64,000 nt of DNA, taken from positions 1-64,000 of IMG/VR virus record IMGVR_UViG_3300032334_001923. One strand, written 5' to 3'. Shown piece after piece: positions 13,729 to 50,173 of this stretch. A program made the position numbers and the translations under genes. The notes under the pieces are model-generated. The model worked only from the letters and a program-made list of their open reading frames with translations. It was not told the origin of the DNA and did no database searches. Origin of the DNA: a virus. How positions within the stretch are numbered: the stretch's first letter is position 1; every line of letters begins with the position of its first letter.

Positions 13729-16700
13729 ATGGCAAATAAGGTAAAAATAGATTACTCCCAATTTAAGGCATCTGGTGTTTATACATTGGAATTTGACGCC
13801 TCACAAAACGTAATCCTAACCTCCCAAACGATTAGATTAGTGGTGGGCTTCTCTAATAAAGGCCCCTTTAATACCCCGGTTTATATCCCGGACGCAACCA
13901 CAATGATTTCCGTTTTTGGAGACATCGATAAAACCCTGGAAAATCAAGGATCTTTCTTTCATAGATCGATCCTAACGTGTTTAAACACTGGCCCAGTTTT
14001 TGGTTTAAATCTTTTAAAATTAAACGACGACTTAGCTAGTGCTACCCCCGACGAGGCTCCTTATAGATCATTCTCTATAGACACAGAGGAGTATAACGGT
14101 GTTGTGACTGAGGTTCTTTACTCTTCTTATTATAATAAAGAGAGATTCTGGTTTGCTGATCCGAATTACTTCTTAGCAACTTTAAGCATTCCTGATCAGG
14201 GTAAACTTTTCAACCTTACAAATCTTGGAAAATCTCCAGTAAGTATAATAATCAGAAAGTCAACAGACTCTACTAAGCCACTTAAAGGATTTGATATTTT
14301 TGCTATTGATTGGTATGGTGCTAATAACGTTCCTTCTTTCATGCACCCTTATGACTACATTTCTGATTATTTCGTTGATGTGATTGCGGTGTCTGGAAAC
14401 TGGACAAATTATCAAGCTCTTTCGGTTGATCCTAAATGGTTTTCTTATTTCACTCCTAATGGTTTTATTAAAAGTCGAATTGACAGCTTCTTAAATCAGC
14501 AAGACGTAAATATAGTAGTTTCAGTAACAGGATGTCTTATTCCTGATTTTGTTGACCTTAACGGGGTGAATCAGTACATACAAACATTAATCAACAACCA
14601 GACGCCTTCAACCGGCCTATTCTGTGCTGTTGATGCTGTTGCTTTTGATGACATTTGTAACAATCCTTCTAGAATAGATCTAGTTGGTAATCATCTTATC
14701 GATGAATTCTCTGGAGACAGAGATCTAGCAAATCCTTATATAGATTTCTTAAGCTACGATCAAGCATTAGATACAGATTATCTATACACACAAAATGTAG
14801 TTGGTGTAACAGGATCTACTGGATTTGTGAGTGCAACAGGAGCTACCATTTATACGACAGGTATGAAAGTCGGTACTCTGTTTACTCTAGGAAGCGGAAC
14901 TACTGCAGGTGTTGTTTATCAATCATTCGCTCCTTATAACTCTTCATTATATGATGGAGGACTTCACTACCTTCAAACTCAAGGGACCGGAGGAACTGCT
15001 GGTTACTTCTTAAATGCTGCTCAGAAAGACGAATTAAAATCTTTCTTAACGGTTAATTCTTCGGATGATCAAAAATTCATCTTAGGAGTTGTTAGCGGCA
15101 TATCAGGACAAACCGGAGGAATTGTTAATCAATTCTCTCCTGCTGATCTAGTTAAATTAAAAGTTACTGGAACTAAAGAAGTAAATGGAGAATTAAGAAT
15201 CTTCTGGACTCACCCTCTAGATACTGCTTCTTTCAGATCGCAAAATATAACAGTAGCACCTGTTTACACTATCACATCTTATAACACAGGAGCATCAGGA
15301 AGTAATAAGCCATTCTACACTAATGCTTACCAATTTGGAAATTCCGATTATGTCGATATCGTAAGTGCTGCTAATCCAAACGGTGCAACAGGACCTAACT
15401 CTCTTACCGGGATTTCTAATGTCCTTGTAGGATATAATGCTTCTCCGGTATTCCAGAATGCTAAATATGAGGACATCGCGGACGGTGACGAGATTTGGGT
15501 TAACTCAACAGGAACATCTCTTCAATACTTAACCGTAGAAGCTGGTGTTGATAAAGATCAATTCAACTATGTGAATTTGAGAGCCCACACTAATCCGGCT
15601 CTTTCAAATACCACTATCACCAACATTCTAGGCTTTGGTCTTTCGTACGCTTCAAACAATATAGGAAACTCTGTATCTTCTCAAAAGATAGACGTTGTTT
15701 CTCAAAACGGTACAATTAACGAGTATGTTGACTGTACTAGAATAGACACTACAACATTTAGAGTTACTTCAGACGCTAATGGTACAGTTCCTTTCTCTGT
15801 AGGTGATTTGGTTGTTTCTACTGATCTTGACATATGCGAGCCTTCAACAGGAAATAGACAAAGCAGATTAGGAAAAATCACAAAGGTTTCTAAAACAACA
15901 ACTGCTAATGTTTATGAAGTTGTTTCTGCAAGACCAGTACTTTATTATTCTGGAACAAGCGGAATGAGAGTTCAGAAATTCTATTCAATAGCTCAGTTCA
16001 CAACATCTTTTGATTTTACATATCTTAAAGGATTTACAATGACCGAGGCACACAGACCAAATGGTACGGATGCTAGAATAGAAGAAATCCTAAACGTTAT
16101 GTACGATACTAACATCGCTAAGACATTAGCTTCTAAAGATGTTATTTCTTACAGATACATCATTGATACGTTTAACGGTATCATTGGACCTGAATCTAAA
16201 TATCAGTACAGTAGACTTGCTCAGCTTAGACAGCAAGCTTTAGCTATTATCAATGCGCCTTCAATGGCTCAATTTAAAGCTAGCACTGATCCTAGATTCA
16301 CTAATGAACCTACTGCTTCTAATCCATATCCAAGTTTAAACACTGCTTACATAGCAAGCGGAGGTAACCTATCTCTAAACCCAACTTATACATTCGGCCT
16401 TCCAACCGAAGGTGACGGAGCTAAGTTTGCAGCATTCTATGCACCTTACATCACTCTAAGAGAGAATAATAAGAACATAAACGTTCCACCTGCAGCTTTT
16501 GTTTCTAATAATTTTGTTAGAAAATTTGCTAACGGAGAACCTTATGCTATAGTAGCTGGACAGAAAAGAGGAATCTTAAGTGGCGGTAACATAGTAGGTG
16601 TTGAATATGACTTTACTGATGACGATAGAGCAAATCTTGAGCCATTCGGTATCAACCCTATCATTAAGAGAAGAGGAGTAGGAGTGGTGATCTTCGGTAA

Positions 16701-26895: not shown

Positions 26896-26903
26896 GATAT
26901 ATA
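26896..26903 (+). promoter_or_regulatory. Putative late promoter GATATATA
   Basis: 15 nt before ATG 26919. Confidence 0.7.
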
Positions 26904-26918
26904 ATCAGATTAAAAAAA

Positions 26919-29552
26919 ATGAAAACCATGGAATTCATAAACCAAGTTAAAAAACTAAAAGAGCAAACTAAGTCTCCAGCGGTTAGACAGCTTTGCGAAA
27001 GCTATCTTAGTGGTAGCAGTAAGGTTTCAAAAGAAACCATTGCAGAGGCATTAAACGAACACGAGTCACAGAACGAACCTTTTTCTAAGACCCAGAACTA
27101 TAGAGAAGCAATTAAAGCTGAGGAGCTACAAACAGCTAAGAAATTAGCTGATTCACTAATGGAATCTTGGGGAGGACTCGGAGGCTCAAAAGCTTCAACC
27201 AACTCAGGATCTTATCAGGCAAAAGACGAAAAGAAAGAAAACGGATCTCTGATGGAGAGTCTATCGAATCTTTCGGTGAATGATGAAAGCCTTAACTCTT
27301 TCATGGACGCTCAACAACTTAAAAACTTGGGAGTTATGGAGTCTATCGCAAAGATAAAAGGTTCATCTATCTATGAATATCCAGCGGTTAAAGTTATCTG
27401 TGAAAAATATTCTAATTTAATACAAGTAAAAAGAATCCCAGAATTTGCTTTAGCCCACAACTTTATTGCTGAAGCTTCTTCTTTCAATTGGGATAACACT
27501 GTTAAATCTCTTGTAGAATCTCTTCACAAGAAGATACAAGAAAATAGCAGAGAGATTGAAGTTTCTAAAGTTTTAGAATCTATTAAATCTAGCGGAAGCC
27601 ATTCTTTCTATTCAGAATTAAGTGATACATTAAACACTTGGCTAGTTTCAGAAAGCAAATCATCAGGCGTTCTTGCTAAGAGCATCTCTAAATATTCTTT
27701 CAATCCGGTTGTTAGAAATCTAATTAACTTTTTAAATGTCAACGAAGCTAGCGACACAAGAAAACTTGAAATCCCTTTTAAATCTCAGGGAGAGTCTAGC
27801 GTATCTAGAATCTTCTCTCCTGTTTTAGTTGAAGAAGGTAGAACTGTTATTGCTATCGGTAAAGATCTTTTCGAAGCTACTGGTGAGGAGTTTTCGAGAA
27901 TGAGCAAAACTGAAGTTAACGGAGTTTCTCAAGATTTCTTAGCGTTAGTATCTGCTGTTAATTCAAAAGGTGTTAAAGTTAACGAGAATGGAATATTCGT
28001 TCAACTTGGTAAAAAATCTGTTAGACTTATCGAAGAAGGAAATGATATTTCTGTTTATCTGGATAAATCTAAGCTTACGTTCAGAACACTAGGAGAACTT
28101 GCTAAGATGTTAAATCTTGAAGGTGGAGCTTATTTCGGAATGAACGAAAGTCAAGCGATAGGAAATGTTATCACTCTATATAAAGGATACAACGATGTTG
28201 TTGAACTCGATTTTGCTAAATCTATAGTTTCTAACATTTATGAAGGTGCTAGTGTTAACCTTATTAAATGGGGAGGAAAGATCTACCTTCAAAGAATAAA
28301 TGAAGGAATGAGAGAGAATTCAATCTTCAAGGTTAACGGATCTCAAGCTGTTAAAATGGTTAAGGACTTCTTAAGATATGACATATCTGAAGGTCTTACT
28401 GATTTCTTAGACGGTGAGAACAAGGTTAAATCTATTATGATCAACGACAGAACAAAAGTTCTTGAGAATATTACTAGAGTAGAATCTGAGATTTCTAAAG
28501 TAGAGGGCCTAATGGAAAACAACCCTCTATATGCAGAATCAAAGCAAATGAAAGCTGCTCACTCTATTTTAAACAATGAACTTACAGTTCTAAAAGAAAA
28601 ATGGAATCAAATAAATCTAGAACTAGAAAGAATCGAAATCAATACATCTGCTTTGGATTCAGATCTTTTAGAAGATGAAAAATTCAATATAGGATCTTAC
28701 ATAAAAGTTAAAGAATCTGGAGAAACTGGAAAAATAATTTCTATGGACGGATCTTCAGGAAGATATACAGTACTTCTTGACAATGGAAGGGCATCAGAAT
28801 TTCTAGTAAATGAGATTCAAGACATAGAAGAGGCTTTATCCCAAGCAGCTGAAAGAAATGAGGAGTCTTCAGATGAGGATGGTGAAGAGGAAGTAAAAGA
28901 AGCTAACAACTTCAACAAGTCTCAACTTTCAGAAGAGGAGCAAAAGAAAATCTTAAAGACTCTTGCTGATAATCACTCATTTTCTAAAGCACCAAAAGGG
29001 GTTCATGATAAAATAGAAATGGAAATGGATTCAGTTCATGGCTACAATGTATCGATGAACGAGGGATCTAAAAAAGAAGGGGCATTATCTAAAGCACCAG
29101 GAGATAGCAAAATAGGATCGGGAAAGGACGGTAATAAAAATAATTTAGCTAAAGCTCCAGGAAACGATAAAATGCAAAAATCTAAAGTTGAAGGTGAAGA
29201 TTTGTTAGATAACAAAGCACCAGAGACTAAGAAGAAAACTGAATTCGACAGTCAAGATGCAGAAGGAAAAAAATACGATATTGGATATAATTTAAGAGAA
29301 GGTGAAAAAAACACCTTAGCTGACGCTCCAGAAAGTGGAAAACAAGCTCCTGAAACAAAAAGAACAACTGACACAAATTTAGTTGAAGCCCCTGAAAAAG
29401 GAACTAACGCTAAAGAAACTAGTGCTACTGCTACAATCGCCAAAAAACAAAACTTGGCTCAAGCACCTGGTAAAGAAGGAGATATTGGTTACGAAGCAAA
29501 CAAAAAAATCGGATATAATCTTTCTGAGTCTGACGAAGTAAAAAAAAAGTAA
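26919..29552 (+). CDS. Large putative prohead-core/internal head protein with C-terminal LxxAP repeats; possibly extended to 29710 by a -1 frameshift
   Basis: Many L/M-x-E-S motifs, KOW/SH3-like segment FNIGSYIKVKESGETGKII, repeated L(S/A)KAP and GYNLxE. Confidence 0.5.
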   Translation: MKTMEFINQVKKLKEQTKSPAVRQLCESYLSGSSKVSKETIAEALNEHESQNEPFSKTQNYREAIKAEELQTAKKLADSLMESWGGLGGSKASTNSGSYQAKDEKKENGSLMESLSNLSVNDESLNSFMDAQQLKNLGVMESIAKIKGSSIYEYPAVKVICEKYSNLIQVKRIPEFALAHNFIAEASSFNWDNTVKSLVESLHKKIQENSREIEVSKVLESIKSSGSHSFYSELSDTLNTWLVSESKSSGVLAKSISKYSFNPVVRNLINFLNVNEASDTRKLEIPFKSQGESSVSRIFSPVLVEEGRTVIAIGKDLFEATGEEFSRMSKTEVNGVSQDFLALVSAVNSKGVKVNENGIFVQLGKKSVRLIEEGNDISVYLDKSKLTFRTLGELAKMLNLEGGAYFGMNESQAIGNVITLYKGYNDVVELDFAKSIVSNIYEGASVNLIKWGGKIYLQRINEGMRENSIFKVNGSQAVKMVKDFLRYDISEGLTDFLDGENKVKSIMINDRTKVLENITRVESEISKVEGLMENNPLYAESKQMKAAHSILNNELTVLKEKWNQINLELERIEINTSALDSDLLEDEKFNIGSYIKVKESGETGKIISMDGSSGRYTVLLDNGRASEFLVNEIQDIEEALSQAAERNEESSDEDGEEEVKEANNFNKSQLSEEEQKKILKTLADNHSFSKAPKGVHDKIEMEMDSVHGYNVSMNEGSKKEGALSKAPGDSKIGSGKDGNKNNLAKAPGNDKMQKSKVEGEDLLDNKAPETKKKTEFDSQDAEGKKYDIGYNLREGEKNTLADAPESGKQAPETKRTTDTNLVEAPEKGTNAKETSATATIAKKQNLAQAPGKEGDIGYEANKKIGYNLSESDEVKKK

Positions 29553-29815: not shown

Positions 29816-30175
29816 ATGGCAAAAGATTATGTAAAAAACAGCGACCTAATGGCGGCTGTAATAGAATCCAAAAAACAAGGAAAATTAACACCGGATACTA
29901 TAGCTATGTTTACCCTTATGATTCAGGGTATCTCAAAGAAAATGGCTTATAAAGATCCGGAGGATAAGGAGGATTGCATGGCTTTTGCAATGGAAGATCT
30001 CTGTAAATACTGGGACAGATTTAATCCCGAAAAATCAAACAATCCCTTTGCTTATTTCACCCAGATTGCAAAGAATGGATTTGCTAAAGGCTGGAAGAAA
30101 TTACATCCACCTAAGAGTCCTAAAACTATACCGTTCAGTTACATCACGGGTGATGATAATTCATATAACGTTTAG
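29816..30175 (+). CDS. gp55: Late transcription sigma factor (T4 gp55-like)
   Basis: YVKNSDL, FNPEKSNNPFAYFTQIAKNGF. Confidence 0.9.
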   Translation: MAKDYVKNSDLMAAVIESKKQGKLTPDTIAMFTLMIQGISKKMAYKDPEDKEDCMAFAMEDLCKYWDRFNPEKSNNPFAYFTQIAKNGFAKGWKKLHPPKSPKTIPFSYITGDDNSYNV

Positions 30176-30182
30176 AAACTAG

Positions 30183-30668
30183 ATGACAGATATAAAAAAA
30201 GTAAAACCTAATGGTGATTATAAGTCCGGGAAATTCGAGCCCTCTAATCCTGATAAGTATATTGGTGATATTCACAATATAATATACAGATCCTCTTGGG
30301 AATATAGATTCTGTGTCTATTGTGATAATAACGAATCCATATTGAAGTGGAGCTCTGAACCAATGGCTATCAAGTACTTTAATCCTCTAGATAAGAAAGA
30401 ACACGATTATAATGTTGATTTCTATATAAAGGTTGTTAAAGAAGACGGAAGTGAGCAAGAATGGATATTGGAAATAAAGCCAGAAAAACAAACCAAGAAG
30501 CCATTATACGAGGGAAACATGACACTTTCTAAGCTTAAATCTTATAACAGAAATATGCAGATTTGGATAACAAACCAGGCTAAGTTTAAATCTGCTAAGG
30601 AGTGGGCTGAAAAGAGAGGATTTAGATTTGGTGTCGTGGATGAGAATTTTTTATTTAAAAGCAAATAA
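30183..30668 (+). CDS. gp4: Head completion nuclease (T4 gp4 / TnsA-like)
   Basis: GKFEPSNPDKYIGD..IIYRSSWE, WSSE, EIKPEKQT, NQAKF. Confidence 0.9.
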   Translation: MTDIKKVKPNGDYKSGKFEPSNPDKYIGDIHNIIYRSSWEYRFCVYCDNNESILKWSSEPMAIKYFNPLDKKEHDYNVDFYIKVVKEDGSEQEWILEIKPEKQTKKPLYEGNMTLSKLKSYNRNMQIWITNQAKFKSAKEWAEKRGFRFGVVDENFLFKSK

Positions 30669-31273
30669 TGAAATACTCAGAATCAGCTTTAAAATATAAA
30701 AAGGAGTTCAAAAGTGTCTCGGATCTAGTTTCGGGAACAGATGAGACGTTTAAGAAAAAATACTTCAGAGGAGGAAAATCTGAAAAGGTATTCTCCTCCC
30801 CCTTTATACCAGGTCAAATATATTCGTTCTATTATAACACAGATTCTGAATTAAGCGAAAAAAGACCTTTCATAAACAGAAATCCTATAGTTTTATGTAC
30901 TGACACGTTCCGTAAGAAGGAATACGGAACAGTTCTTAAAGGAATAGATCTGGTAACAGTCCCTCCTCCTTATAAGATTCAGATTCTTTCTAAAATTTAC
31001 GACAGCTTTTCTAATACTATAGAGAGAAACGAGGAGGCTTCTAAAAACGGAGGAGCTATATCACCCATTCAATTGAAAGATAGTCTTTTAGAGAGAGCAT
31101 TAAATGGAACCGGATATAAAAAATCGGTTTTTGGATTCAAAGCTTCGTTTATGCAGGAGATAAAAATTCTGGACCTGGAGGATTGGTATAAGATCCCGTA
31201 TTTGAGGTACTCAGAGATAGAGGGCTTGGATCTCCAGGGGATATATAGCGAGTATGAATCGAAATTAATTTAA
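30668..31273 (+). CDS. gp2: DNA end protector (T4 gp2-like)
   Basis: FIPGQIYSFYY motif; adjacent to gp4 as in T4-like phages. Confidence 0.55.
   Translation: MKYSESALKYKKEFKSVSDLVSGTDETFKKKYFRGGKSEKVFSSPFIPGQIYSFYYNTDSELSEKRPFINRNPIVLCTDTFRKKEYGTVLKGIDLVTVPPPYKIQILSKIYDSFSNTIERNEEASKNGGAISPIQLKDSLLERALNGTGYKKSVFGFKASFMQEIKILDLEDWYKIPYLRYSEIEGLDLQGIYSEYESKLI
31240..31247 (+). promoter_or_regulatory. Putative late promoter for the portal genes
   Basis: GATATATA inside the 3' end of the upstream gene, 59 nt before ATG 31307. Confidence 0.6.
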
Positions 31274-31306: not shown

Positions 31307-32920
31307 ATGGCTGGTTTTGTAAATAATAATAACCCCTCAGAATCTCCGGTAATACAGAGAATAAGAGAATCCGTAAAGAGGCTTAGTACCTTTGGGATGA
31401 AGTATGATGACATGGTCATCAGAAACTCCCAGGCGGTTGGGGTTACCGAGGCTGCTTTCCTAAACAAAAATAAGTCAAATGTAGAAGATGAAAGCATGCT
31501 TTGGACATTGGCCAAACAGGATATAACCACAAAGCAATTTGTCTCTTATTTTGATAAAGATTATAAGGGAAAAAGAGATTATCTTAGAAAATTTTCTCTC
31601 AATCCTGAGATAGAGTGGGTGCTTGATACAATCTGTGACGAGTCCGTTTCGTATGACCCAGCAAACTTTTTTGCATACCCTGACTTTCTAGACCTTACTG
31701 ATATAAACGAAAAGATAAAGGACGAGCTTTACGAGACTTATAAGAAAATATACGATTTCTGGGGATTCAATGATGATATCTCTGCATGGCAGTATTTTAG
31801 ACAGTTTCTTGTTGATGGGTTTTTATGCTTTGAGATAATCTATGATAATTCGGGAAAAGAAATAGTCGGATTTAAGGAGCTTGATCCTATAACAATAGTT
31901 CCTAGTGTTGAAAAACAAATAGATGGATCTTTCTTAAATACTTGGACTCAATTTCCACAAGATCCCAGAAAGAGAAGGATACTCTATGATCCTCAGGTGA
32001 TCTATATTTCTTACGCTAAAGGTAATTCAATCTCGAGAATAAGCTACATTGAGAGACTTATTAGACCTTACAATATTCTTAGAATTATAGAATATACCAG
32101 GGTTATATGGTCTGTTATGAATGCTTCTTTTAGACTTAAGATGACAGTTCCTATAGGAACTAAATCACAACAGAAAGGGCTTCAAACTCTGGGCGAGCTT
32201 ATGAGTATCTACAAGGAGGATGTTCAGTTAAATGATGATACCGGAGAACTTCTTATTGACGGAAGACCTAAAATACAGTTCTATAAGAATTATCTGATGC
32301 CTTCTGGCGTTAACGGAACTCCTACTATCGAGCCTTTAAATACCGAAGGACCTAACCTTAATGACAATCAGCCACTAAGTTATTTCTTTGATAAGTTTGT
32401 ACTTGAATCTAAAATACCTGCATCTAGATTTCATCAGCCAGACGGAGGAAACACTTCTGCTTATGCTAATGCTGCTGAGGGTTTAGATAAGGAAGAGATT
32501 AGGTTTTCTAAATTTATTTCCAGACTTAGATCTATATTCCAGGAAATCATGACCAAACCTCTTTGGGTTCAGATGGTTAAAAAACATCCCGAATTAGAAA
32601 AAGACTTTATGTTCAAGAGTCAGTTAGGTCTTGATTATTTTTCTGACAATCCCTTTAAAATAAATCAGGAGATTGACATAATAAATAAAAAGAAAGAGGC
32701 TGTTTCTTCGATGGCGGGATTAATGGGAGACGGAGAAAAAACATATTTCTCTGTTCCTTTCTTAATTGAAACATTCCTTGGATTATCTAAACAGGATATC
32801 AAGGCGAATAAAGAGGCTATAGAGAGAAGAGAAAAAAAGAAAGAAAAAGAGAGTAAAGAAGGCGAGGGAGGAGAAGAAGGTGGCGAAGAAGGAGAAGGAG
32901 GAGAAGCAGTAACATTATAA
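31307..32920 (+). CDS. gp20: Portal protein, copy 1
   Basis: PEIEWVLDTICDE, FRQFLVDG, SYIERLIRPYNILRIIE, YKNYLMP, FDKFVLESKIPASR, FSKFISRLRSIF. Confidence 0.92.
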   Translation: MAGFVNNNNPSESPVIQRIRESVKRLSTFGMKYDDMVIRNSQAVGVTEAAFLNKNKSNVEDESMLWTLAKQDITTKQFVSYFDKDYKGKRDYLRKFSLNPEIEWVLDTICDESVSYDPANFFAYPDFLDLTDINEKIKDELYETYKKIYDFWGFNDDISAWQYFRQFLVDGFLCFEIIYDNSGKEIVGFKELDPITIVPSVEKQIDGSFLNTWTQFPQDPRKRRILYDPQVIYISYAKGNSISRISYIERLIRPYNILRIIEYTRVIWSVMNASFRLKMTVPIGTKSQQKGLQTLGELMSIYKEDVQLNDDTGELLIDGRPKIQFYKNYLMPSGVNGTPTIEPLNTEGPNLNDNQPLSYFFDKFVLESKIPASRFHQPDGGNTSAYANAAEGLDKEEIRFSKFISRLRSIFQEIMTKPLWVQMVKKHPELEKDFMFKSQLGLDYFSDNPFKINQEIDIINKKKEAVSSMAGLMGDGEKTYFSVPFLIETFLGLSKQDIKANKEAIERREKKKEKESKEGEGGEEGGEEGEGGEAVTL

Positions 32921-32930
32921 AAAAATTGAG

Positions 32931-34556
32931 ATGGCAGGATTTTTAGACGCATTTAAACCAAATCAGTCCGCACTAGGAAACATAATTCGAAACCTTGGAA
33001 AAATATCCAAGTTTGGAATGGAGTATGATGATATGGTTGTGAGGAACTCTCAAGCTATTGGTAAAACAGAGTCAGCTTTCTTTAATCAGCAAGGAACCGG
33101 ATTCACGGAAAATGACGCTTTTTACTGGACCCTATCATATCAAGACACTAGAGTTAGAAAATACATAGCTTACTTTGATAAAGATTATATCGAAAAAAGA
33201 AATTTTCTTAGAAAATTTTCTCTTAACGGTGAGATAGAGTTTATCATAGATACTATTACCGACGAATCTATTTCTTATGATGATAGAAATTTTTTCGCCA
33301 GACCTTCTTTTATAAATCTTCAGGATCTCAAAGAAAGAACTAAAGATAAAATAGAGGAGAATTTCAATAGACTCTATAATGTGTTTGGCTTCCAGAATTC
33401 TATATCAGCATGGCAGCTATTCAAGCAATTCTTAGTTGATGGATTTTTAGCATTTGAAATAATCTATGACAATAAAGGCAAGGAAATAATCGGTTTTAAA
33501 GAACTGGATGCAACCTCACTTCAGCCTGCTGTTGAGAAAGTTGGTGAAAATGAATATAAACAGTTTTGGATTCAATATCCAAAAAATCCTCAAATGACTA
33601 GAAAGCTTACCAATGAGCAAGTCATTTATATCTCATATGCTAAGGGTAATTCTGTATCAAGAGTAAGCTATCTGGAGAGATTGGTTAGATCTTATAACAT
33701 TTTAAGAATAATGGAAAACTCAAGAGTTATCTGGAATGTTATGAATGCCTCCTATAGGTTAAAGTTTATAATCCCGACGGGAACCCAATCCCCACAGAAA
33801 GCAATGCAGACTTTGGGCCAGCTTATGTCTCATTATAAAGAGGAAATATCTCTTAATGACACATCGGGGGAATTAACGGTAAACGGTAAGCCTAAGGTTC
33901 AATTTTATAAGAATTATTTATTTCCTGAACAAAATGGACAATCCCCTCAGGTTGAGTCTTTAAATCCAAGTGGTCCGGATTTTAACGTAATGGAGAACGT
34001 TTTATACTTCTTCAATAAACTTAAAATGGACTCTAAAATACCTTATGCTCGATTTGCATCAAGAGGAGCTACTCCTATAAATTATCAGATAAGTATAGAT
34101 GCTCTGGAAAGAGATGAAATTAGATTTGAGAAATTTTTAAGAAGGCTTAGATCTGTTTTCCAGGAGATATTGGTTAAACCTCTATACATTCAGATGTGTT
34201 TAGATTACCCTGAACTTGCTAAAGATAGAAGCTTTAAAGTTAATCTTGGTCTTCAATTCTACAAGGATAGTCAATTCGAAGAAATCGTTGAACTTTCAAA
34301 TTACAAAAAAAGAACTGAGTTTATAGCAGGACTTTTAGAATTAAAAATGAAAGTTGGCGAAGAGGAAAAAACATACTTCGATAATGATTTCTTGATTCAA
34401 AGGTTCTTAGGATTAACCCCTGATCAGTTTAAGCTGAATGAGGAGTATAAAAAAAGAGAAGAGAAAGAAGCAGAAAAAGCATCTAAGGAAGAAGGTGGAG
34501 GAGAAGGTGAAGAGGGAGGCGAAGGTGAAGGAGGCGCAGAGGCAGTAACTTTATAA
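32931..34556 (+). CDS. gp20: Portal protein, copy 2
   Basis: GEIEFIIDTITDE, FKQFLVDG, SYLERLVRSYNILRIME, YKNYLFP, KIPYAR, FEKFLRRLRSVF. Confidence 0.92.
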   Translation: MAGFLDAFKPNQSALGNIIRNLGKISKFGMEYDDMVVRNSQAIGKTESAFFNQQGTGFTENDAFYWTLSYQDTRVRKYIAYFDKDYIEKRNFLRKFSLNGEIEFIIDTITDESISYDDRNFFARPSFINLQDLKERTKDKIEENFNRLYNVFGFQNSISAWQLFKQFLVDGFLAFEIIYDNKGKEIIGFKELDATSLQPAVEKVGENEYKQFWIQYPKNPQMTRKLTNEQVIYISYAKGNSVSRVSYLERLVRSYNILRIMENSRVIWNVMNASYRLKFIIPTGTQSPQKAMQTLGQLMSHYKEEISLNDTSGELTVNGKPKVQFYKNYLFPEQNGQSPQVESLNPSGPDFNVMENVLYFFNKLKMDSKIPYARFASRGATPINYQISIDALERDEIRFEKFLRRLRSVFQEILVKPLYIQMCLDYPELAKDRSFKVNLGLQFYKDSQFEEIVELSNYKKRTEFIAGLLELKMKVGEEEKTYFDNDFLIQRFLGLTPDQFKLNEEYKKREEKEAEKASKEEGGGEGEEGGEGEGGAEAVTL

Positions 34557-34573: not shown

Positions 34574-35626
34574 TTGGATCCCTTTATTTTTTACAAAGAA
34601 TTTAAAAAAACAAGATCACGTAAAATAGAATCTCTATCTGATCTTAATATACTCGTAGTAGGAGACGTTATGCTAGATCATTATATCTACGGATCAGCAA
34701 CAAGAATTTCTCCAGAAGCACCAGTTCCCGTAGTTTTAAAAAAAGAAGAAAAGTTTTTTCTGGGTGGAGCGGGTAATGTTTTTTCCAATATAATATCACT
34801 GGGAGGCAAATCTGAGATCCTAACTGTTCTTGGGAATGATGAAGGGTCTCAAAAGATCTTATCTATACTAAAAGACCTAACTTGTAAAAACCAGTCTCTT
34901 ATTTTCTATTCTGACGACAGGAAAACAACAGTAAAGTCAAGAGTAATGTCAGGAGGACACCAGATGTTAAGAATAGATGATGAAACGACTAACCCCATAG
35001 ATGTCCAATTGGAGGATTTGATATTAACTGAATTCTCTTTATGTTGCGGAAATTACTCGGGAGTGATACTTCAGGATTATAATAAGGGTGTTCTAACCCC
35101 TAGAGTTATAGAAGGAATAATAGAAAAATGTAAGGAGAAAAAAATTCCAGTTATAGTAGATCCTAAAAAGAATAACATACAATCTTACAGAGGATCCACC
35201 ATTTTTAAACCTAATTTTTCGGAGTTTTGCAATATAGTTGGAAAAGAAATAGACCCTAACGATCAAAGCTCTATTTCTAAATATTCCTCACTTCTAAGAA
35301 AAGAAATGGATGTAGAAAATCTGGTTATAACAATGTCAGATCTTGGTATTTATTTTTCCAGCTCATTTTGCGATTCTTTTAGTCCAGCATACGAAGTTAA
35401 GGTATCAGATGTGTCCGGAGCAGGAGACACTGTTTTGGCTATGCTGTCCCTTTGTTATCTAGCAGGGACAGATCCTAAAAATATGCTATCCCTATGTAAT
35501 CTTGCGGGGTCCATAGCATGTAGTAAAGTCGGTGCAGTATCTGTCAAGTTATCAGAAATAGAAAATCACCCCGAGATGAAAAAGAAGATAAGTGAAGAAA
35601 GAATTTTTATTTTTGATAATAATTAA
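34574..35626 (+). CDS. hldE: D-glycero-beta-D-manno-heptose-7-phosphate kinase (HldE/RfaE domain I, PfkB family)
   Basis: VVGDVMLDHY..RISPEAPVPVV, GGAGNV, QDYNKGVLT, VDPK, DVSGAGDTV. Confidence 0.93.
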   Translation: MDPFIFYKEFKKTRSRKIESLSDLNILVVGDVMLDHYIYGSATRISPEAPVPVVLKKEEKFFLGGAGNVFSNIISLGGKSEILTVLGNDEGSQKILSILKDLTCKNQSLIFYSDDRKTTVKSRVMSGGHQMLRIDDETTNPIDVQLEDLILTEFSLCCGNYSGVILQDYNKGVLTPRVIEGIIEKCKEKKIPVIVDPKKNNIQSYRGSTIFKPNFSEFCNIVGKEIDPNDQSSISKYSSLLRKEMDVENLVITMSDLGIYFSSSFCDSFSPAYEVKVSDVSGAGDTVLAMLSLCYLAGTDPKNMLSLCNLAGSIACSKVGAVSVKLSEIENHPEMKKKISEERIFIFDNN

Positions 35627-35659
35627 TTTTTTTTCATCCGAGATTATTTCTTACATTTG
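35625..35659 (+). promoter_or_regulatory. Putative early promoter (Bacteroidota type)
   Basis: AATTTTTTTTCATCCG-N11-TACATTTG. Confidence 0.75.
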
Positions 35660-35677
35660 CTTTAAATAAAAAAACAA

Positions 35678-37009
35678 ATGATTCAGGAAATAAGAGTATT
35701 AAGAAAAATCGAATCCCTTACAGGCGAAGGATCTCAAAAATCAAAGCAGAATTTAATTAATGAGTCTTTAACCCCAGAGATGGAGTATATCTTAGATGTC
35801 TGTTTTAATCCCTTTGTCACAACTAAACTCCATAAAATATCCTTTCGGGAAACCCCAAAGGAAGGTAATCCTAATCTCTTCAATGATTTTAAAACATTGA
35901 TAGAGGATCTTAAAAAAGCTCCAGCAGCAAACGATCTTTTAAGAGAAAGAGCTCAGACAATTATATCCTATCGTTTATCTGAGGATGATCAAGAGGATAC
36001 AGATCTTAGAAAAAATCTAATGAAGGTTTTGACCAAAAGAATGAATATAGGCATCGGTGCTAAACTTATAAACAAAGCAGTTGGAAAAGAGCTTATCCCT
36101 GATCCATCACTTATGTTGGCAACTGATGATCACCAAACAATAGAGGCTTGGAATAAGATTTACTGTGAAGAAAAATATGACGGGGTCAGAGTAATTGCCC
36201 TTTATAAAAACGGAGAGTTTTCATATTTTACTAGAGCCTTTAATGAGCTTGATTCTTCATGTTTTCCTAAGATTACTTTTGATCTAAAAACATGTATGAT
36301 AAACTCAGGACTAAAGGGTGACTGGTTTTTTGATGGTGAATTAACAGATCTTAATAGAAAATCTGTTAGTGGAAAGGTTACTCAAATACTTAAAGGAACT
36401 GTTGATGAGAAAATAGAGACTGGCATGCTATTTAATGTATTCGACTTTGAAGAAGCAGTAACTTTAGAAAAAGGAAGTGGAGTAATAGAATATAGAACAC
36501 GCAGAAGCACATTAGAAAATGTACTTAAACATCTTGATGAAAATTCCCCTGTTAAATTGGCTCAGATGTGGGAATTGGAAGATTCCACTGCAGTTAGTCT
36601 TGTTTACAAGGAAATAGTAAAAATAGGAGGCGAGGGCGTTATATGTAAAAATGACTCAGTTTATGAATGCAAAAGATCTAAGTCTTGGGTTAAATTCAAA
36701 GAAGTTAACGAGTGCGATCTTGAAGTAACTGGTTGGTATCCAGGAGAGGGCAAAAGAGAAGGAATGATAGGAGGATTTATGATGACAGACTCTTCTAAAA
36801 CTATGACGGTTAGGGTTGGTGCAGGATTCAGCGATTTGGATCTACAGACCCTTAGCAAAGATCCAGATTCTCATATAGGTAAAATTGCTGCTGTTCAATA
36901 CAACGTGACTATCACGGATAAGCACGGGAATAGATCTTTATTTTTACCTCGCTTTGTAGATATAAGAAATGATAAAACTCAAGCAGACGATCTTTCCTCT
37001 CTTTTTTAG
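35678..37009 (+). CDS. gp30: ATP-dependent DNA ligase
   Basis: EEKYDGVR, FDGEL, EGVICK, WVKFK, LFLPRF. Confidence 0.96.
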   Translation: MIQEIRVLRKIESLTGEGSQKSKQNLINESLTPEMEYILDVCFNPFVTTKLHKISFRETPKEGNPNLFNDFKTLIEDLKKAPAANDLLRERAQTIISYRLSEDDQEDTDLRKNLMKVLTKRMNIGIGAKLINKAVGKELIPDPSLMLATDDHQTIEAWNKIYCEEKYDGVRVIALYKNGEFSYFTRAFNELDSSCFPKITFDLKTCMINSGLKGDWFFDGELTDLNRKSVSGKVTQILKGTVDEKIETGMLFNVFDFEEAVTLEKGSGVIEYRTRRSTLENVLKHLDENSPVKLAQMWELEDSTAVSLVYKEIVKIGGEGVICKNDSVYECKRSKSWVKFKEVNECDLEVTGWYPGEGKREGMIGGFMMTDSSKTMTVRVGAGFSDLDLQTLSKDPDSHIGKIAAVQYNVTITDKHGNRSLFLPRFVDIRNDKTQADDLSSLF

Positions 37010-46421: not shown

Positions 46422-48422
46422 ATGACAAGAACTCAGACAAATACACTAAACGAACAAATGGTCTTCATCCTGGAAAAACAGGATTATGTCCTTGAGTCTA
46501 AAAAGGGCGAGGGCAATGACTATGTTCTGGAGGGTATAGCAGCGGTATTCGGTCAGGAGAACAACAATCATAGAATCTATGAGGAAAACGAATATCTCCC
46601 GCACCTAGATTACCTTAAGGAGAAGATAGCTCAAAAGAGACTTCTAGGAGAGCTAGATCACCCAGAAAAATTCGATGTTTCTCTTAAGAACATCTCTCAC
46701 ATTATCACATCTCTTGATTACGACAAGTCTTCAAGAACCCTTAAGATTAAGGTTAAGCTTTTAGATACTCCAGCAGGAGATATAGCTAGAAAGCTAGTTG
46801 ATGCGGGAGTTCCTCTTTCGATATCATCTAGAGCAGCAGGATCTGTTGGAAACGATAAGAAGGTTCAGATCAAGAAGATCTTTACTTATGATCTAGTAGC
46901 AGATCCGGGATTTCAGGATGCTCAGCTTAAAAGAGTTTACGAAAGCGCAGGCTACTCTGAAGAGCAATTCGACACCTATAAAAAACAAAGCATAGTAAAT
47001 AGTCTTGAGTGTTTAAACGAATCTTTAGGTATAAAAAATGAATCTACCTTGAAGATATATAAAGTTGAAAACACAGAGGAGTTTAACAGCATTATAAAAC
47101 AAACAGATAAAAATAAGAAAATCCTTATGGAGAATAACGAATTTGTTACTGCAGAAGAACTAAATCAATATTCAGTTTTCCTGAAGAAGGAAATGGATTC
47201 GATGAGATCTACGATAGCAGACATAAAACAACAAAAAACCGCTCTTACAGAGTCTAACGAAGGTGAAGGTTCTACGGAAGAGTTTGAAGCTAGAATCGCT
47301 AAGCTTGAGAAGTATTCAGGATATCTAGCAGAGAATCTAGAAAACGCTATCAAATACGGAGATTATCTAGCAGAAAATCTTGACAAGAGCATCAACTACA
47401 GTAAATACTTAGCTGAGAATCTTGATAAGAATATTTCTTATTCTAAATATATTGCTGAGAACGTAGACAAGTCTATTTCTTACACTGAATATGTTGCTGA
47501 AAGCGTGGATCAGAATATCGAGTATTCTAAATACATCGCAGAAAAACTTGATCAAAATATTCAATATTCAGAGTACCTAGCAGAAAACGTTGATAAAGGA
47601 ATTCAATATTCAGAGTACCTAGCAGAAAACGTTGATAAAAACATTGCTTATTCTGAGTACATCGGAGAAAATCTTGAAAAAGGAATAGCTTATACTGAAT
47701 ACGTTGCTGAAAAACTTAACAATGGAATTGATTACACAGAATACGTTGCTGAGAATCTGAACAAATCTATCGAATATACCGATTACCTAGCAGAAAATCT
47801 AAATAAAGGAATTGATTACACAGAATACGTTGCTGAGAAACTTAACAAAGGTATCGCTTATTCAGAGTATATCGCAGAATCTCTTGCTAGTGGAAAATTA
47901 GCTAAACAAGAGACTTCTTCATTAAGAGAAAGTGCAGAATTTAGCGCTATTTCAGATCTTAACGAATCAGGATTTGCAGGAAACTATGCAGATCTTACAT
48001 CAAAAATCGACTCACTAATAGAATCAGTTAAAACCCAAAAAACTGAGAGTAATATAAACGAGGCAGCTAAGAGATTAGCTCCAGCCGAAACACAAAAGGC
48101 AGAAGTTCTTAACGAATCAGAGAACACTAACAAATCAGGACTTAAATTCATTGATGAAATGCCTGAAGAATACGCTCCGGTTTGGGAGTCTCTAAACGAA
48201 GCACACAAGCAATCAATCATTGCTCAGTCTAACTTCTACAGATTAGAAACCCCTTATCAGATCAAAAACTTCTGGTCAACACGCCAACTTGGAGCTAAAC
48301 CGGTTGGAGTTCAAAAATTAGAAGAGAACGAAAACATCTCAGAAAGCGCTAAAGCTCAAGCTTACTCTAACGAGTATATGCAGCACATCGCTTCTGCACT
48401 GGAAAAGAAATTCCAAAAATAA
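46422..48422 (+). CDS. gp21: Prohead protease (gp21) fused to scaffold/core protein (gp22-like)
   Basis: LEGI, NHRIY, LGELDHP, ISSRAAG, TYDLVADPGF, then a long coiled-coil repeat region. Confidence 0.9.
   Translation: MTRTQTNTLNEQMVFILEKQDYVLESKKGEGNDYVLEGIAAVFGQENNNHRIYEENEYLPHLDYLKEKIAQKRLLGELDHPEKFDVSLKNISHIITSLDYDKSSRTLKIKVKLLDTPAGDIARKLVDAGVPLSISSRAAGSVGNDKKVQIKKIFTYDLVADPGFQDAQLKRVYESAGYSEEQFDTYKKQSIVNSLECLNESLGIKNESTLKIYKVENTEEFNSIIKQTDKNKKILMENNEFVTAEELNQYSVFLKKEMDSMRSTIADIKQQKTALTESNEGEGSTEEFEARIAKLEKYSGYLAENLENAIKYGDYLAENLDKSINYSKYLAENLDKNISYSKYIAENVDKSISYTEYVAESVDQNIEYSKYIAEKLDQNIQYSEYLAENVDKGIQYSEYLAENVDKNIAYSEYIGENLEKGIAYTEYVAEKLNNGIDYTEYVAENLNKSIEYTDYLAENLNKGIDYTEYVAEKLNKGIAYSEYIAESLASGKLAKQETSSLRESAEFSAISDLNESGFAGNYADLTSKIDSLIESVKTQKTESNINEAAKRLAPAETQKAEVLNESENTNKSGLKFIDEMPEEYAPVWESLNEAHKQSIIAQSNFYRLETPYQIKNFWSTRQLGAKPVGVQKLEENENISESAKAQAYSNEYMQHIASALEKKFQK
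47054..47061 (+). promoter_or_regulatory. Putative gene-internal late promoter for a nested scaffold ORF
   Basis: GATATATA 65 nt before the in-frame ATG 47127, which has an A-rich leader. Confidence 0.5.
47127..48422 (+). CDS. Putative nested in-frame scaffold protein (431 aa, MENNEFV...)
   Basis: In-frame ATG just after the protease domain, with its own late promoter motif. Confidence 0.45.
   Translation: MENNEFVTAEELNQYSVFLKKEMDSMRSTIADIKQQKTALTESNEGEGSTEEFEARIAKLEKYSGYLAENLENAIKYGDYLAENLDKSINYSKYLAENLDKNISYSKYIAENVDKSISYTEYVAESVDQNIEYSKYIAEKLDQNIQYSEYLAENVDKGIQYSEYLAENVDKNIAYSEYIGENLEKGIAYTEYVAEKLNNGIDYTEYVAENLNKSIEYTDYLAENLNKGIDYTEYVAEKLNKGIAYSEYIAESLASGKLAKQETSSLRESAEFSAISDLNESGFAGNYADLTSKIDSLIESVKTQKTESNINEAAKRLAPAETQKAEVLNESENTNKSGLKFIDEMPEEYAPVWESLNEAHKQSIIAQSNFYRLETPYQIKNFWSTRQLGAKPVGVQKLEENENISESAKAQAYSNEYMQHIASALEKKFQK
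47313..47885 (+). repeat. 14 tandem 42-nt (14-aa) coding repeats Y(S/T)xY(L/I/V)AExLxKxIx
   Basis: 13 full units plus 1 partial; exact 39-nt duplicate at 47559..47597 and 47601..47639. Confidence 0.95.
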
Positions 48423-48451: not shown

Positions 48452-50173
48452 ATGAAATTGATTAACGAACAAGAAATCTATAGTACCTGGGCGCCTCTAA
48501 TTGAGAGCAAAGCTGGTATTACAGATGAAAGCAAAAAAGGATGGTTGACTAAATATTGTCACTACCATTCATTAAACGAATCTGCTGGTGCTTATAACAC
48601 TCTAGGTGTTGTAAACGGTATGGGTGCTGTTCAAGCTCCTCTATTCCCTGGTGCTAGCTATCCTGGTGTTGCAACTATCGGAACTGGCGCAAACGCTAAC
48701 TTCTATAACGCTGCTTACCAAGGATCAGGCGATAAATTCCCTTCACTTCTTCCTTTAGCTATTCAAGTAGCTGCGAAGACTGTTGGTTTTGATATCGTTC
48801 CTGTTATCCCTATGTCAGGTCCTACTGGTATCCTTTCTTACCTTGACTATGTTTACGCTGGTGGTAAAATTGCTGGTGCTACTTCAGGTACTTCAGGTGC
48901 TGACTTAGCTGATGCTCCTTCAATGATTAAGTTTGGTGCTTACGGAGCAACCGGTACTACTGGTCTTACAGCTGGTGTACTTGCAGTTGGAACAACTTAC
49001 TACATTGGGACTGCTTCTGCTACTGTAAAGATCACAAGTAAATTTGTTGGACTTTCAAGAATCGATGGTAATCCAATCTTCCAAATCACTGATATTGCTA
49101 ACGGGTATAACGTTGCTGATATCGTAGTTGCTGGTGCTTTTGTTTCTACAGCCACTACACCTATTTCAGCTACCGCTGCAGCTACGGTCAATACTCCTGC
49201 TGCATTGGTAAAAGCTCTTGAAGATCACATCCAAGGTTTCTCTGGTGCTGGTTTCAACAACGACCAAAACTGGCAAGGACCATACGTTGATGGTACTAAA
49301 ACTTACAACCCAATGTTAAGAGGTGTTGCTGAGTCTAGCTACTACAACTCAATGGGTCTTTCTACTTTCACTAAGTTCGTAGAAGCTGAGACTTTCCAAG
49401 TTGCTGCTTCAGTTACAACTGAGCAAATTCAAGACCTTAACAAGCAATTCGGTATCGACGTTATCTCAATGATCGAGAACGCACTTGTTAACGAGGTTTC
49501 ACAAGCTATCAACAAGCACATCTTAGCAAGAGCATTCGCTCTAGGTTGGTCTAACCACGTAACATTCAACAACGTAGAAGGTCAAAACCTAAATCTTAAC
49601 CTTTCAACTAACTCTGCATCTAACACTTCAGCTTATGTTGGTAAAGATGATGTTGGTGTTTCAATGGCTGTACCTGGACAAATTTCTACTCAAACTTTTG
49701 AGAACCAATCAACTCTACAAAGAAGATTATTCTCTAGAATCTTGGCTGCTGCTAACGTAGTTGCTAATAGAGGTAGAAGAGGTCCTGCTAACTTCCTTAT
49801 TACTAATGCTAATATCGCAAGTGCGCTTCAAGACATCTCTCAATTCACTTTCGCTCCGTTCTCTAACACTTTAACTCAAAACAACGGTACACTTTATCCT
49901 GTAGGTTCTCTTGCTGGTATGACAGTATACGTTGACCAAAACATGAGCTACAACGATACAAGAATCTGCGTTGGTAGAAAAGGTGGTGATGACGAACCAG
50001 GACTTAAGTTTATGCCTTACATGATGGCTGAATCAATTCAGACTATCTCTGAAGGTACAATGTCACCAAAAATCGCGGTTAAATCTAGATACGCTCTAGT
50101 AGAAGCTGGTTTCTTACCTGAAACTATGTACTTAACATTCTATGTTAACGTGCCTGCTAGCGGTATCGTTTAA
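48452..50173 (+). CDS. gp23: Major capsid protein
   Basis: PVIPMSGPTG, EAETFQVAASVTTEQIQDL..FGID, NEVSQAIN, GPANFLI, KSRYAL. Confidence 0.93.
   Translation: MKLINEQEIYSTWAPLIESKAGITDESKKGWLTKYCHYHSLNESAGAYNTLGVVNGMGAVQAPLFPGASYPGVATIGTGANANFYNAAYQGSGDKFPSLLPLAIQVAAKTVGFDIVPVIPMSGPTGILSYLDYVYAGGKIAGATSGTSGADLADAPSMIKFGAYGATGTTGLTAGVLAVGTTYYIGTASATVKITSKFVGLSRIDGNPIFQITDIANGYNVADIVVAGAFVSTATTPISATAAATVNTPAALVKALEDHIQGFSGAGFNNDQNWQGPYVDGTKTYNPMLRGVAESSYYNSMGLSTFTKFVEAETFQVAASVTTEQIQDLNKQFGIDVISMIENALVNEVSQAINKHILARAFALGWSNHVTFNNVEGQNLNLNLSTNSASNTSAYVGKDDVGVSMAVPGQISTQTFENQSTLQRRLFSRILAAANVVANRGRRGPANFLITNANIASALQDISQFTFAPFSNTLTQNNGTLYPVGSLAGMTVYVDQNMSYNDTRICVGRKGGDDEPGLKFMPYMMAESIQTISEGTMSPKIAVKSRYALVEAGFLPETMYLTFYVNVPASGIV

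Follow-up and report, generated by a model that had tools for sequence, protein, structure and literature searches.

A tandem pair of full-length T4-type portal genes in a clade of uncultured giant phages

Tailed phages normally carry a single portal gene, the product of which forms a homododecamer. A 64,000-nucleotide stretch of DNA (positions 1 to 64,000 of the IMG/VR virus record IMGVR_UViG_3300032334_001923, hereafter the window) departs from this rule, in that it holds two complete portal genes of the T4 gp20 type, one directly behind the other, which are referred to below as paralogs A and B (Table 1). The window makes up the first 64 kb of a 127-kb record belonging to an uncultured freshwater giant phage, for which CheckV gives a completeness of 46%, so that the whole phage genome should measure roughly 275 kb. 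The question raised by this locus is what such a phage does with two portal proteins: whether both enter one ring, whether each builds a ring of its own, or whether only one of them serves as the portal of the virion.

The portal pair and its relatives

The translated products of both genes matched the Pfam family PF07230 (Portal_T4) nearly end to end, A with an expectation value (E) of 4.5e-58 over profile positions 7-432 of 433 and B with E 9.3e-68 over positions 6-432 of 433, and both were likewise matched by the portal family PHROG 213 (E 4.9e-56 for A and 1.1e-64 for B). The two proteins are collinear and show 51% identity and 72% similarity over 505 aligned amino acids with 6 gaps, and the identity of their DNA varies along the gene from 0.46 to 0.72. 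Because the DNA identity amounts to merely 46-72%, the pair is not an assembly duplicate. A and B are both full-length, functional T4-type portal genes. An earlier note on this DNA, drawn up from the letters and open reading frames of the stretch, had already described two full-length portal reading frames of these lengths and positions, collinear, diverged from each other and no assembly duplicate, each ending in a Gly/Glu tail closed by EAVTL; the family matches, the identities between the copies and the two translations bear it out on all these points.

AlphaFold2 models of A and B, built on input alignments of 70 sequences, reached a mean predicted local distance difference test score (pLDDT) of 73 and 76, respectively. 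The order of helices and strands is identical in the two models, and clip, stem, wing and crown are all there; the N-terminus, the tunnel loop (residues 379-389 in A and 378-386 in B) and the C-terminal tail are disordered in both. In Foldseek searches the T4 gp20 entries 9MKB, 6UZC, 9LU7 and 3JA7 came out as the top matches for either copy (best E 1.5e-19 for A and 3.1e-20 for B; probability 1.00; template modelling score 0.5-0.7), and a sequence search of the PDB with A and B matched only these T4-type portals.

Relatives were collected from IMG/VR, where 291 stretches were related to A and 172 to B, and 155 loci were fetched for a census. The tandem arrangement, A followed by B, was present in 151 of these 155 loci, the remaining four being cut by contig ends, and loss of either copy was observed in none of the 155. 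Seventy-two distinct complete A/B pairs were obtained from many metagenomes, a spread that excludes the chimeric assembly allowed for in the earlier note, and in every one of them the intergenic gap measures 1-23 nucleotides (nt). Among complete relatives (n = 5; 290-435 kb, three of them with terminal repeats) the analysis revealed that (i) each genome has exactly two portal genes, which are adjacent, (ii) each has one large-terminase gene, (iii) each has one full-length capsid gene accompanied by one short gp24-like paralog, and (iv) gp14-like matches are single and gp13-like matches weak and confined to two of the five genomes, neither being doubled where detected. With one terminase, one full-length capsid gene and undoubled neck genes, the portal alone is therefore doubled. 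At the DNA level, megablast returned no match among GenBank phages; the nearest protein matches in GenBank were LR756500 (462 kb, 45% identity) and LR756501-4, followed by the Lak megaphages and Tenacibaculum phage PTm1. Not one of the 2109 GenBank phage records with a gp20 homologue contains two full-length ones.

In maximum-likelihood trees all A-type proteins formed one clade (support 99-100) and all B-type proteins another (100), with similar internal branching in the two; together with the representative sequence P0005 they made up a joint clade (99) nested among single-copy portals. The contig carrying P0005 (L173) itself runs on into a B-type start (MAGFLD...FGMEYDD), so that the portal pair extends deeper than the IMG/VR set. 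The sister P0004 has a single portal, in the order gp55-gp4-gp2-portal with gp44 directly after it, and no independent duplication of the portal was found in P0004, P0007, P0009, P0010, P0014, LR756500, LR756501 or LR756502. Since A and B are each monophyletic and the sampled sisters have one portal, the trees argue firmly that the portal was duplicated in tandem once, long ago, at the root of this large freshwater clade of uncultured phages. Gene conversion along the body of the gene was considered and rejected, as A/B nucleotide identity within and between genomes differs by at most 0.02 in any 30-codon window.

For orthologues with unsaturated synonymous divergence, the ratio of nonsynonymous to synonymous substitution rates (dN/dS; Nei-Gojobori) had medians within 0.015-0.026 in either copy, and the sites conserved in one copy only numbered 25 for A and 29 for B. 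These values indicate purifying selection that is strong and equal on the two copies, and the relaxed selection on one of them that the earlier note had thought conceivable was not found, dN/dS being ~0.02 for A as for B. The extreme N-terminus is among the conserved parts: A, B and most single-copy relatives from huge phages (P0003-P0061) all begin with MAGF, at times MSGF or MAGY, whereas T4 gp20 begins differently (MKFNV..., without MAGF), and the longer N-terminal segment MAGF...FGMxYDDMV is conserved in both A and B. Such conservation suggests that the first residues, encoded at 31307-31318 and 32931-32942, are a processed or docking end.

The motif GATATATA, one copy of which stands ahead of A (Table 1), occurs 15 times in the window, always on the plus strand, against 4.2 expected, a count reached in 0 of 100 shuffles. 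A scan of the window found no copy between A and B, and of 73 genomes, 71 have the motif no more than 120 nt ahead of A, whereas none has it ahead of B. Scans for sigma-70 promoters and for terminators gave nothing above chance, and no terminator was found between A and B. The earlier note had placed a single late promoter ahead of the pair; one promoter-like motif does lie there, upstream of A alone, and that it acts as a late promoter is what we infer from the gp55-like sigma gene at 29816-30175. The layout, with a single promoter-like site and a gap of at most 23 nt, suggests co-expression of A and B.

Table 1. Coordinates of the portal pair and of related features in the window
Feature	Position	Strand	Basis or remark
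Portal paralog A	31307..32920	+	537 amino acids; Pfam Portal_T4 profile match
Portal paralog B	32931..34556	+	541 amino acids; Pfam Portal_T4 profile match
Spacer, A stop codon to B start codon	32921..32930	+	10 nt; read from the sequence
Tail of A (C-terminal, acidic Gly/Glu, disordered, ends EAVTL)	32819..32917	+	Translation; pLDDT <50 at residues 521-537
Tail of B (C-terminal, acidic Gly/Glu, disordered, ends EAVTL)	34455..34553	+	Translation; pLDDT <50 at residues 523-541
GATATATA late-promoter-like motif	31240..31247	+	60 nt before A start; sole one upstream of the pair
gp55-like late sigma factor	29816..30175	+	PHROG 234, E 1.3e-16; Pfam Sigma70_r2
gp4-like head completion / head closure protein	30183..30668	+	PHROG 218, E 2.7e-47
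gp2-like DNA end protector	30668..31273	+	Weak PHROG 429 match, E 4.7e-4; 3' end holds the promoter-like motif
Apparent prohead protease/scaffold fusion	46422-48422		666-amino-acid protein; Peptidase_S77, E 1.6e-10
gp23-type major capsid gene	48452-50173		Single

Divergence between the copies and their tails

Differences between the copies were mapped on an alignment of 73 A and 73 B proteins with T4 gp20, using the T4 domain limits of PMC4493910, and a column at least 90% conserved within each paralog yet different between them was counted as a fixed difference (n = 26). Twenty of these fall within the 146 columns of stem alpha5, clip, stem alpha7 and tunnel loop (T4 residues 255-398), against 6 in the 383 columns elsewhere (odds ratio 10; Fisher p = 1e-7, in a test that ignores sequence relatedness). 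When the comparison is restricted to columns that both copies conserve, it gives an odds ratio of 5.5 (p = 2e-4, relatedness again being ignored). Of the differences lying elsewhere, none is in the N-terminal segment and 4 are in the wing. The stem, clip and tunnel-loop region of the T4 portal binds terminase. Its clip region forms the sole main-chain inter-subunit beta-sheet of gp20 (PMC4493910), the C-terminal arm of gp13 inserts between the clip helices of neighbouring portal subunits (PMC12929587), and the tunnel loops hold the last packaged DNA (PMC12929629).

When the fixed differences were polarized against 17 single-copy relatives, A proved to be derived at 12 sites and B at 11, with 3 unclear. 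Residues near-invariant in single-copy portals have been replaced in A (G336N, D350N, S254P and K77Q) and, at other positions, in B (L351F, L357V and A390I), and several of the replaced positions neighbour each other (350/351, 356/357). Judged by these substitutions, the divergence is reciprocal, neither copy keeping the full ancestral state.

An acidic or Gly-rich disordered tail with a hydrophobic last residue is general in the portal family: T4 gp20 ends in ...QEQEDF, LR756502 in ...SEFEF, and for most of the single-copy representatives the last residue is F, L, Y or W. Because T4 gp20 and most single-copy relatives bear comparable tails, EAVTL is to be regarded, from these comparisons, as the local form of an inherited feature and not as a product of the duplication. 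In the clade, 39 of the 73 genomes have the end [V/F/I]-T-[L/I] on both copies, 26 have it on B alone, 7 on A alone and 1 on neither, and even the two copies of this last genome have Ile as their final residue. On the tree, the state of the motif changed at least 3 times for A and up to 5 times for B. This distribution indicates that the tail can be located on either subunit.

In genomes with the motif on A as well as on B, residues -8 to -4 of the two copies share 69% identity within a genome versus 43% after shuffling, the value of 69% being reached in 0 of 5000 shuffles, and the nucleotides of the same stretch are 74% identical within genomes versus 60% after shuffling. Over the rest of the gene the within-genome A/B excess stays at or below 0.02 in every window, and only the last few codons co-vary. 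The two tails thus evolve in concert, which could come about through local gene conversion or through a common partner. The selected docking peptide that the earlier note had seen in the shared EAVTL has to be reconsidered: the tail is family-wide, its end co-varies between the copies within the clade, and the motif stands in both copies of only 39 of the 73 genomes.

One mixed ring or separate portals

The earlier note had offered three readings of the pair, namely a hetero-oligomeric portal, two specialised vertices or alternative particle types, and the evidence leans towards the first of them. The reading that we favour, with a probability of about 0.45, is that A and B co-assemble in one mixed dodecameric portal. 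It is preferred because (i) there is one terminase, one capsid gene and one set of neck genes, (ii) the bicistronic A-B order is invariant, (iii) the reciprocal divergence leaves neither copy fully ancestral, (iv) the differences gather at the inter-subunit and partner-binding core, the capsid-facing parts being alike, and (v) the tail appears to be interchangeable between the copies. In its strict form, to which we lean a shade less, the portal would be an obligate hetero-dodecamer, in the simplest case with A and B subunits alternating, six of each; such a portal would be the first of a hetero-oligomeric kind among tailed phages and herpesviruses, with six-fold symmetry genetically encoded at the head-tail and motor-docking interface. 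An obligate hetero-ring calls for two paralogs that are always kept, equally constrained and made together, and for complementary divergence between them; both copies were indeed kept under equal constraint (155 loci; dN/dS ~0.02), co-expression is suggested by the layout, and the sites with a derived state number 12 for A and 11 for B. A homododecamer encoded by one gene calls for a single portal gene, and two are found here and in the five complete relatives.

Under the mixed-ring reading, A and B would be made together and then co-assembled into a single dodecamer, most simply with six A and six B alternating. The capsid-facing parts, namely the N-terminal segment and the wing, would stay alike in both subunits, and the stem, clip and tunnel loop would be specialized by subunit type for the DNA channel, the inter-subunit beta-sheet and the binding of terminase and then of the neck. 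In such a ring the grooves between the clips would come in two chemically distinct forms and the tunnel loops in two types, which would give a built-in six-fold pattern for neck and motor docking and for DNA gating, in place of the conformational non-equivalence of a one-gene portal. The acidic tail with its [V/F/I]-T-[L/I] end would be an inherited docking-type tail inside the capsid, supplied by either subunit.

Several points weigh against this. All the sequence evidence would also fit two separate homo-oligomeric rings within a common capsid environment, and no tailed phage or herpesvirus is known to have a hetero-oligomeric portal. Most of the fixed differences are conservative (V/I, E/D, K/R, F/Y), the domains were mapped through an alignment to T4 at ~20% identity, with T4 boundaries and not those of a structure of the present protein, and the enrichment tests are uncorrected for the kinship of the sequences. 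As to the tail, its absence from both copies is expected in ~3 genomes under independence, and the pattern of at least one tail per genome is statistically not strong. A full-text search of the literature gave no report of two portal paralogs in one phage, nor of a hetero-oligomeric phage portal; the poxvirus 'portal' heterododecamer was considered as a precedent and rejected, the proteins being unrelated.

The best of the other explanations, though in our judgement an unlikely one, is that A and B form two separate homo-dodecameric rings with different jobs, one being the packaging and tail portal and the other a second ring that is stacked inside the head, sits at another vertex or belongs to another particle type. 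Such a division of labour would agree with the retention of every portal domain and of the secondary-structure order in both copies, and the combination of similar wing and N-terminal regions with different clip, stem and tunnel loop fits similar capsid sites with different outside partners; yet the complete genomes, with their one terminase, one major capsid and single-copy neck genes, hold no second set of partners. That some lineages have lost the tail of A and others that of B is likewise unexpected if a fixed role needs the tail, neither copy resembles an unchanged ancestral portal, and the tight bicistronic order is kept in 72 of 72 pairs.

T4 portal assembly needs accessory factors, namely gp40 and membrane insertion, and a duplicated portal could take over an accessory assembly role of its own, in which case both copies would stay under purifying selection. 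It is nevertheless improbable that only one paralog is the virion portal and the other a helper outside the virion, be it an assembly initiator or chaperone, a decoy, or a packaging regulator that forms portal-like rings or acts by capping, since constraint is equal over the full length, including the tunnel loop, clip and wing with which a helper could dispense, since the MAGF...FGMxYDDMV segment is kept in both copies, and since A and B have nearly equal shares of the derived states.

We give slightly less credit still to redundant or alternative portals, each copy alone making a working homododecamer and the second being kept for particular hosts or conditions or for escape from portal-sensing defences. 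Portal proteins trigger some bacterial defence sensors of the Avs type, which could favour a second portal, and the function of the tail is seemingly supplied by either copy. A second portal, however, cannot hide the first from a sensor that recognizes the fold, and redundant copies should decay, whereas 0 losses were seen in 155 loci and dN/dS is ~0.02 for both; the loss of near-invariant residues from each copy also argues against self-sufficiency.

Reads were checked in four DNA runs, through Logan contigs of the region, and one Logan contig from another sample (run X3, record 2) spans the A/B junction. That the pair is an assembly artefact or a very recent, meaningless duplicate, to which the fragmentation of these contigs and one short contig joining A to B might be thought to point, is refuted by the census of relatives (72 distinct pairs across independent metagenomes and the same pair in 5 complete genomes), as well as by the bridging contig from another sample and the identities of 51% in protein and 46-72% in DNA between the copies, and can be dismissed. 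The joining contig, from run X5 (569 nt, depth 5.9), connects A at 31434 to B at 33077 through 21 foreign letters; we read it as an artefact of the assembly graph between paralogs, the alternative being a rare A/B hybrid gene in a relative.

Surrounding genes and comparison with known systems

The gp55-like gene heads a conserved block, gp55-gp4-gp2-portal, the order of which is also found in the sister contigs L175, L173 and L174, counted here as the single-portal sisters. Within this block the gp4-like protein additionally matches the N-terminal domain of TnsA-like endonucleases (Pfam PF08722, E 2.1e-18), and in relatives the gene at the position orthologous to the gp2-like gene matches PF26869 (Phage_T4_gp2). 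On the 3' side of the portal pair lie genes for a PfkB-family kinase, an ATP-dependent DNA ligase, a gp44-like clamp loader, a guanylate kinase, an RNase H-like exonuclease and a gp62-like protein. The kinase (350 amino acids, TTG start) and the ligase occupy 34574-37009, between the pair and the gp44 clamp loader, and are regarded as variable cargo because in the single-portal sister contig L175 gp44 comes directly after the portal. The prohead protease/scaffold and major capsid genes are located 12-14 kb downstream of the pair, and the former resembles the protease-scaffold fusion annotated in Tenacibaculum phage PTm1. Just 5' of the gp55-like gene, 26919-29552 encodes a protein of 877 amino acids, with a copy of GATATATA at 26896, 23 nt ahead of the start codon. 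This protein matched none of the families in Pfam and PHROG and is likely a late structural protein.

Among characterized portals, T4 gp20 (PF07230; PDB 3JA7, 6UZC, 9MKB, 9LU6/9LU7) is the closest counterpart of both paralogs, with an end-to-end family match, the best fold match, the same order of clip, stem, wing and crown, a disordered tunnel loop and N-terminus, and an acidic C-terminal tail with a hydrophobic end. It differs in that T4 has one full-length gene and a homododecamer, whereas two genes are retained here, at ~20% identity to T4. The nearest relatives, at 30-49% identity, are the portals of single-portal huge phages, namely LR756500 (462 kb), LR756501 and LR756502 (735 and 642 kb), the Lak megaphages, PTm1, P0004, P0009, P0010 and P0014; they have in common with the pair the order gp4-gp2-portal, an N-terminus with MAGF and a tail of low complexity, in most cases with a hydrophobic end, but have one portal gene each. 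In one of them, LR756501.1 (735 kb), the single full-length portal is accompanied by an open reading frame of 101 amino acids on the minus strand at 15166-15351, the match of which to the Portal_T4 model is confined to the final 58 positions (E 1.8e-5) and which may be a portal fragment or a crown-like domain.

Beside the T4 portal, the gp13 dodecamer and gp14 hexamer of the neck make a 12-to-6 symmetry step (PMC12929587, PMC12929629). The arms of gp13 enter between adjacent clip helices, that is, in the region where A and B differ most; in T4 identical gp13 subunits occupy two environments, whereas here the step might be encoded in the portal itself. In the complete relatives the sole match to the T4 gp14 family is a stretch of ~130 residues within a protein of 830 amino acids (e.g. 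G002:C1:250735-251070), and the neck of the clade phages seems, from such matches, to be built unlike that of T4. The T4 proteins gp23 and gp24 offer an analogy only: there too a structural gene was duplicated and its copies occupy non-equivalent positions of one assembly, but these are the hexamer and pentamer positions of the capsid shell and not those of one ring. Duplicated subunits became obligate hetero-oligomers in the fungal V-ATPase proteolipid ring, the proteasome and the CCT rings. As in the portal pair, the subunit of a homo-oligomer was duplicated, ancestral residues were reciprocally lost and both copies were retained; the proteins are unrelated, and co-assembly is demonstrated there but only proposed here.

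No machine of tailed phages and herpesviruses is more conserved than the portal, and every description known to us gives it as twelve copies of a single protein set in a five-fold vertex. Much of what is thought about packaging, DNA gating and neck attachment builds on this identity of the subunits and on the symmetry mismatches that result from it. A clade that has kept two portal genes through its whole radiation is a natural experiment on how the tasks of the portal, namely head nucleation, terminase docking, DNA holding and neck binding, can be divided among subunits. If the mixed ring is true, it would be a new architecture of a textbook machine and a clean case of the passage from a homo- to a hetero-oligomer; if the rings are separate, these phages would possess a second portal-like structure that has not been described.

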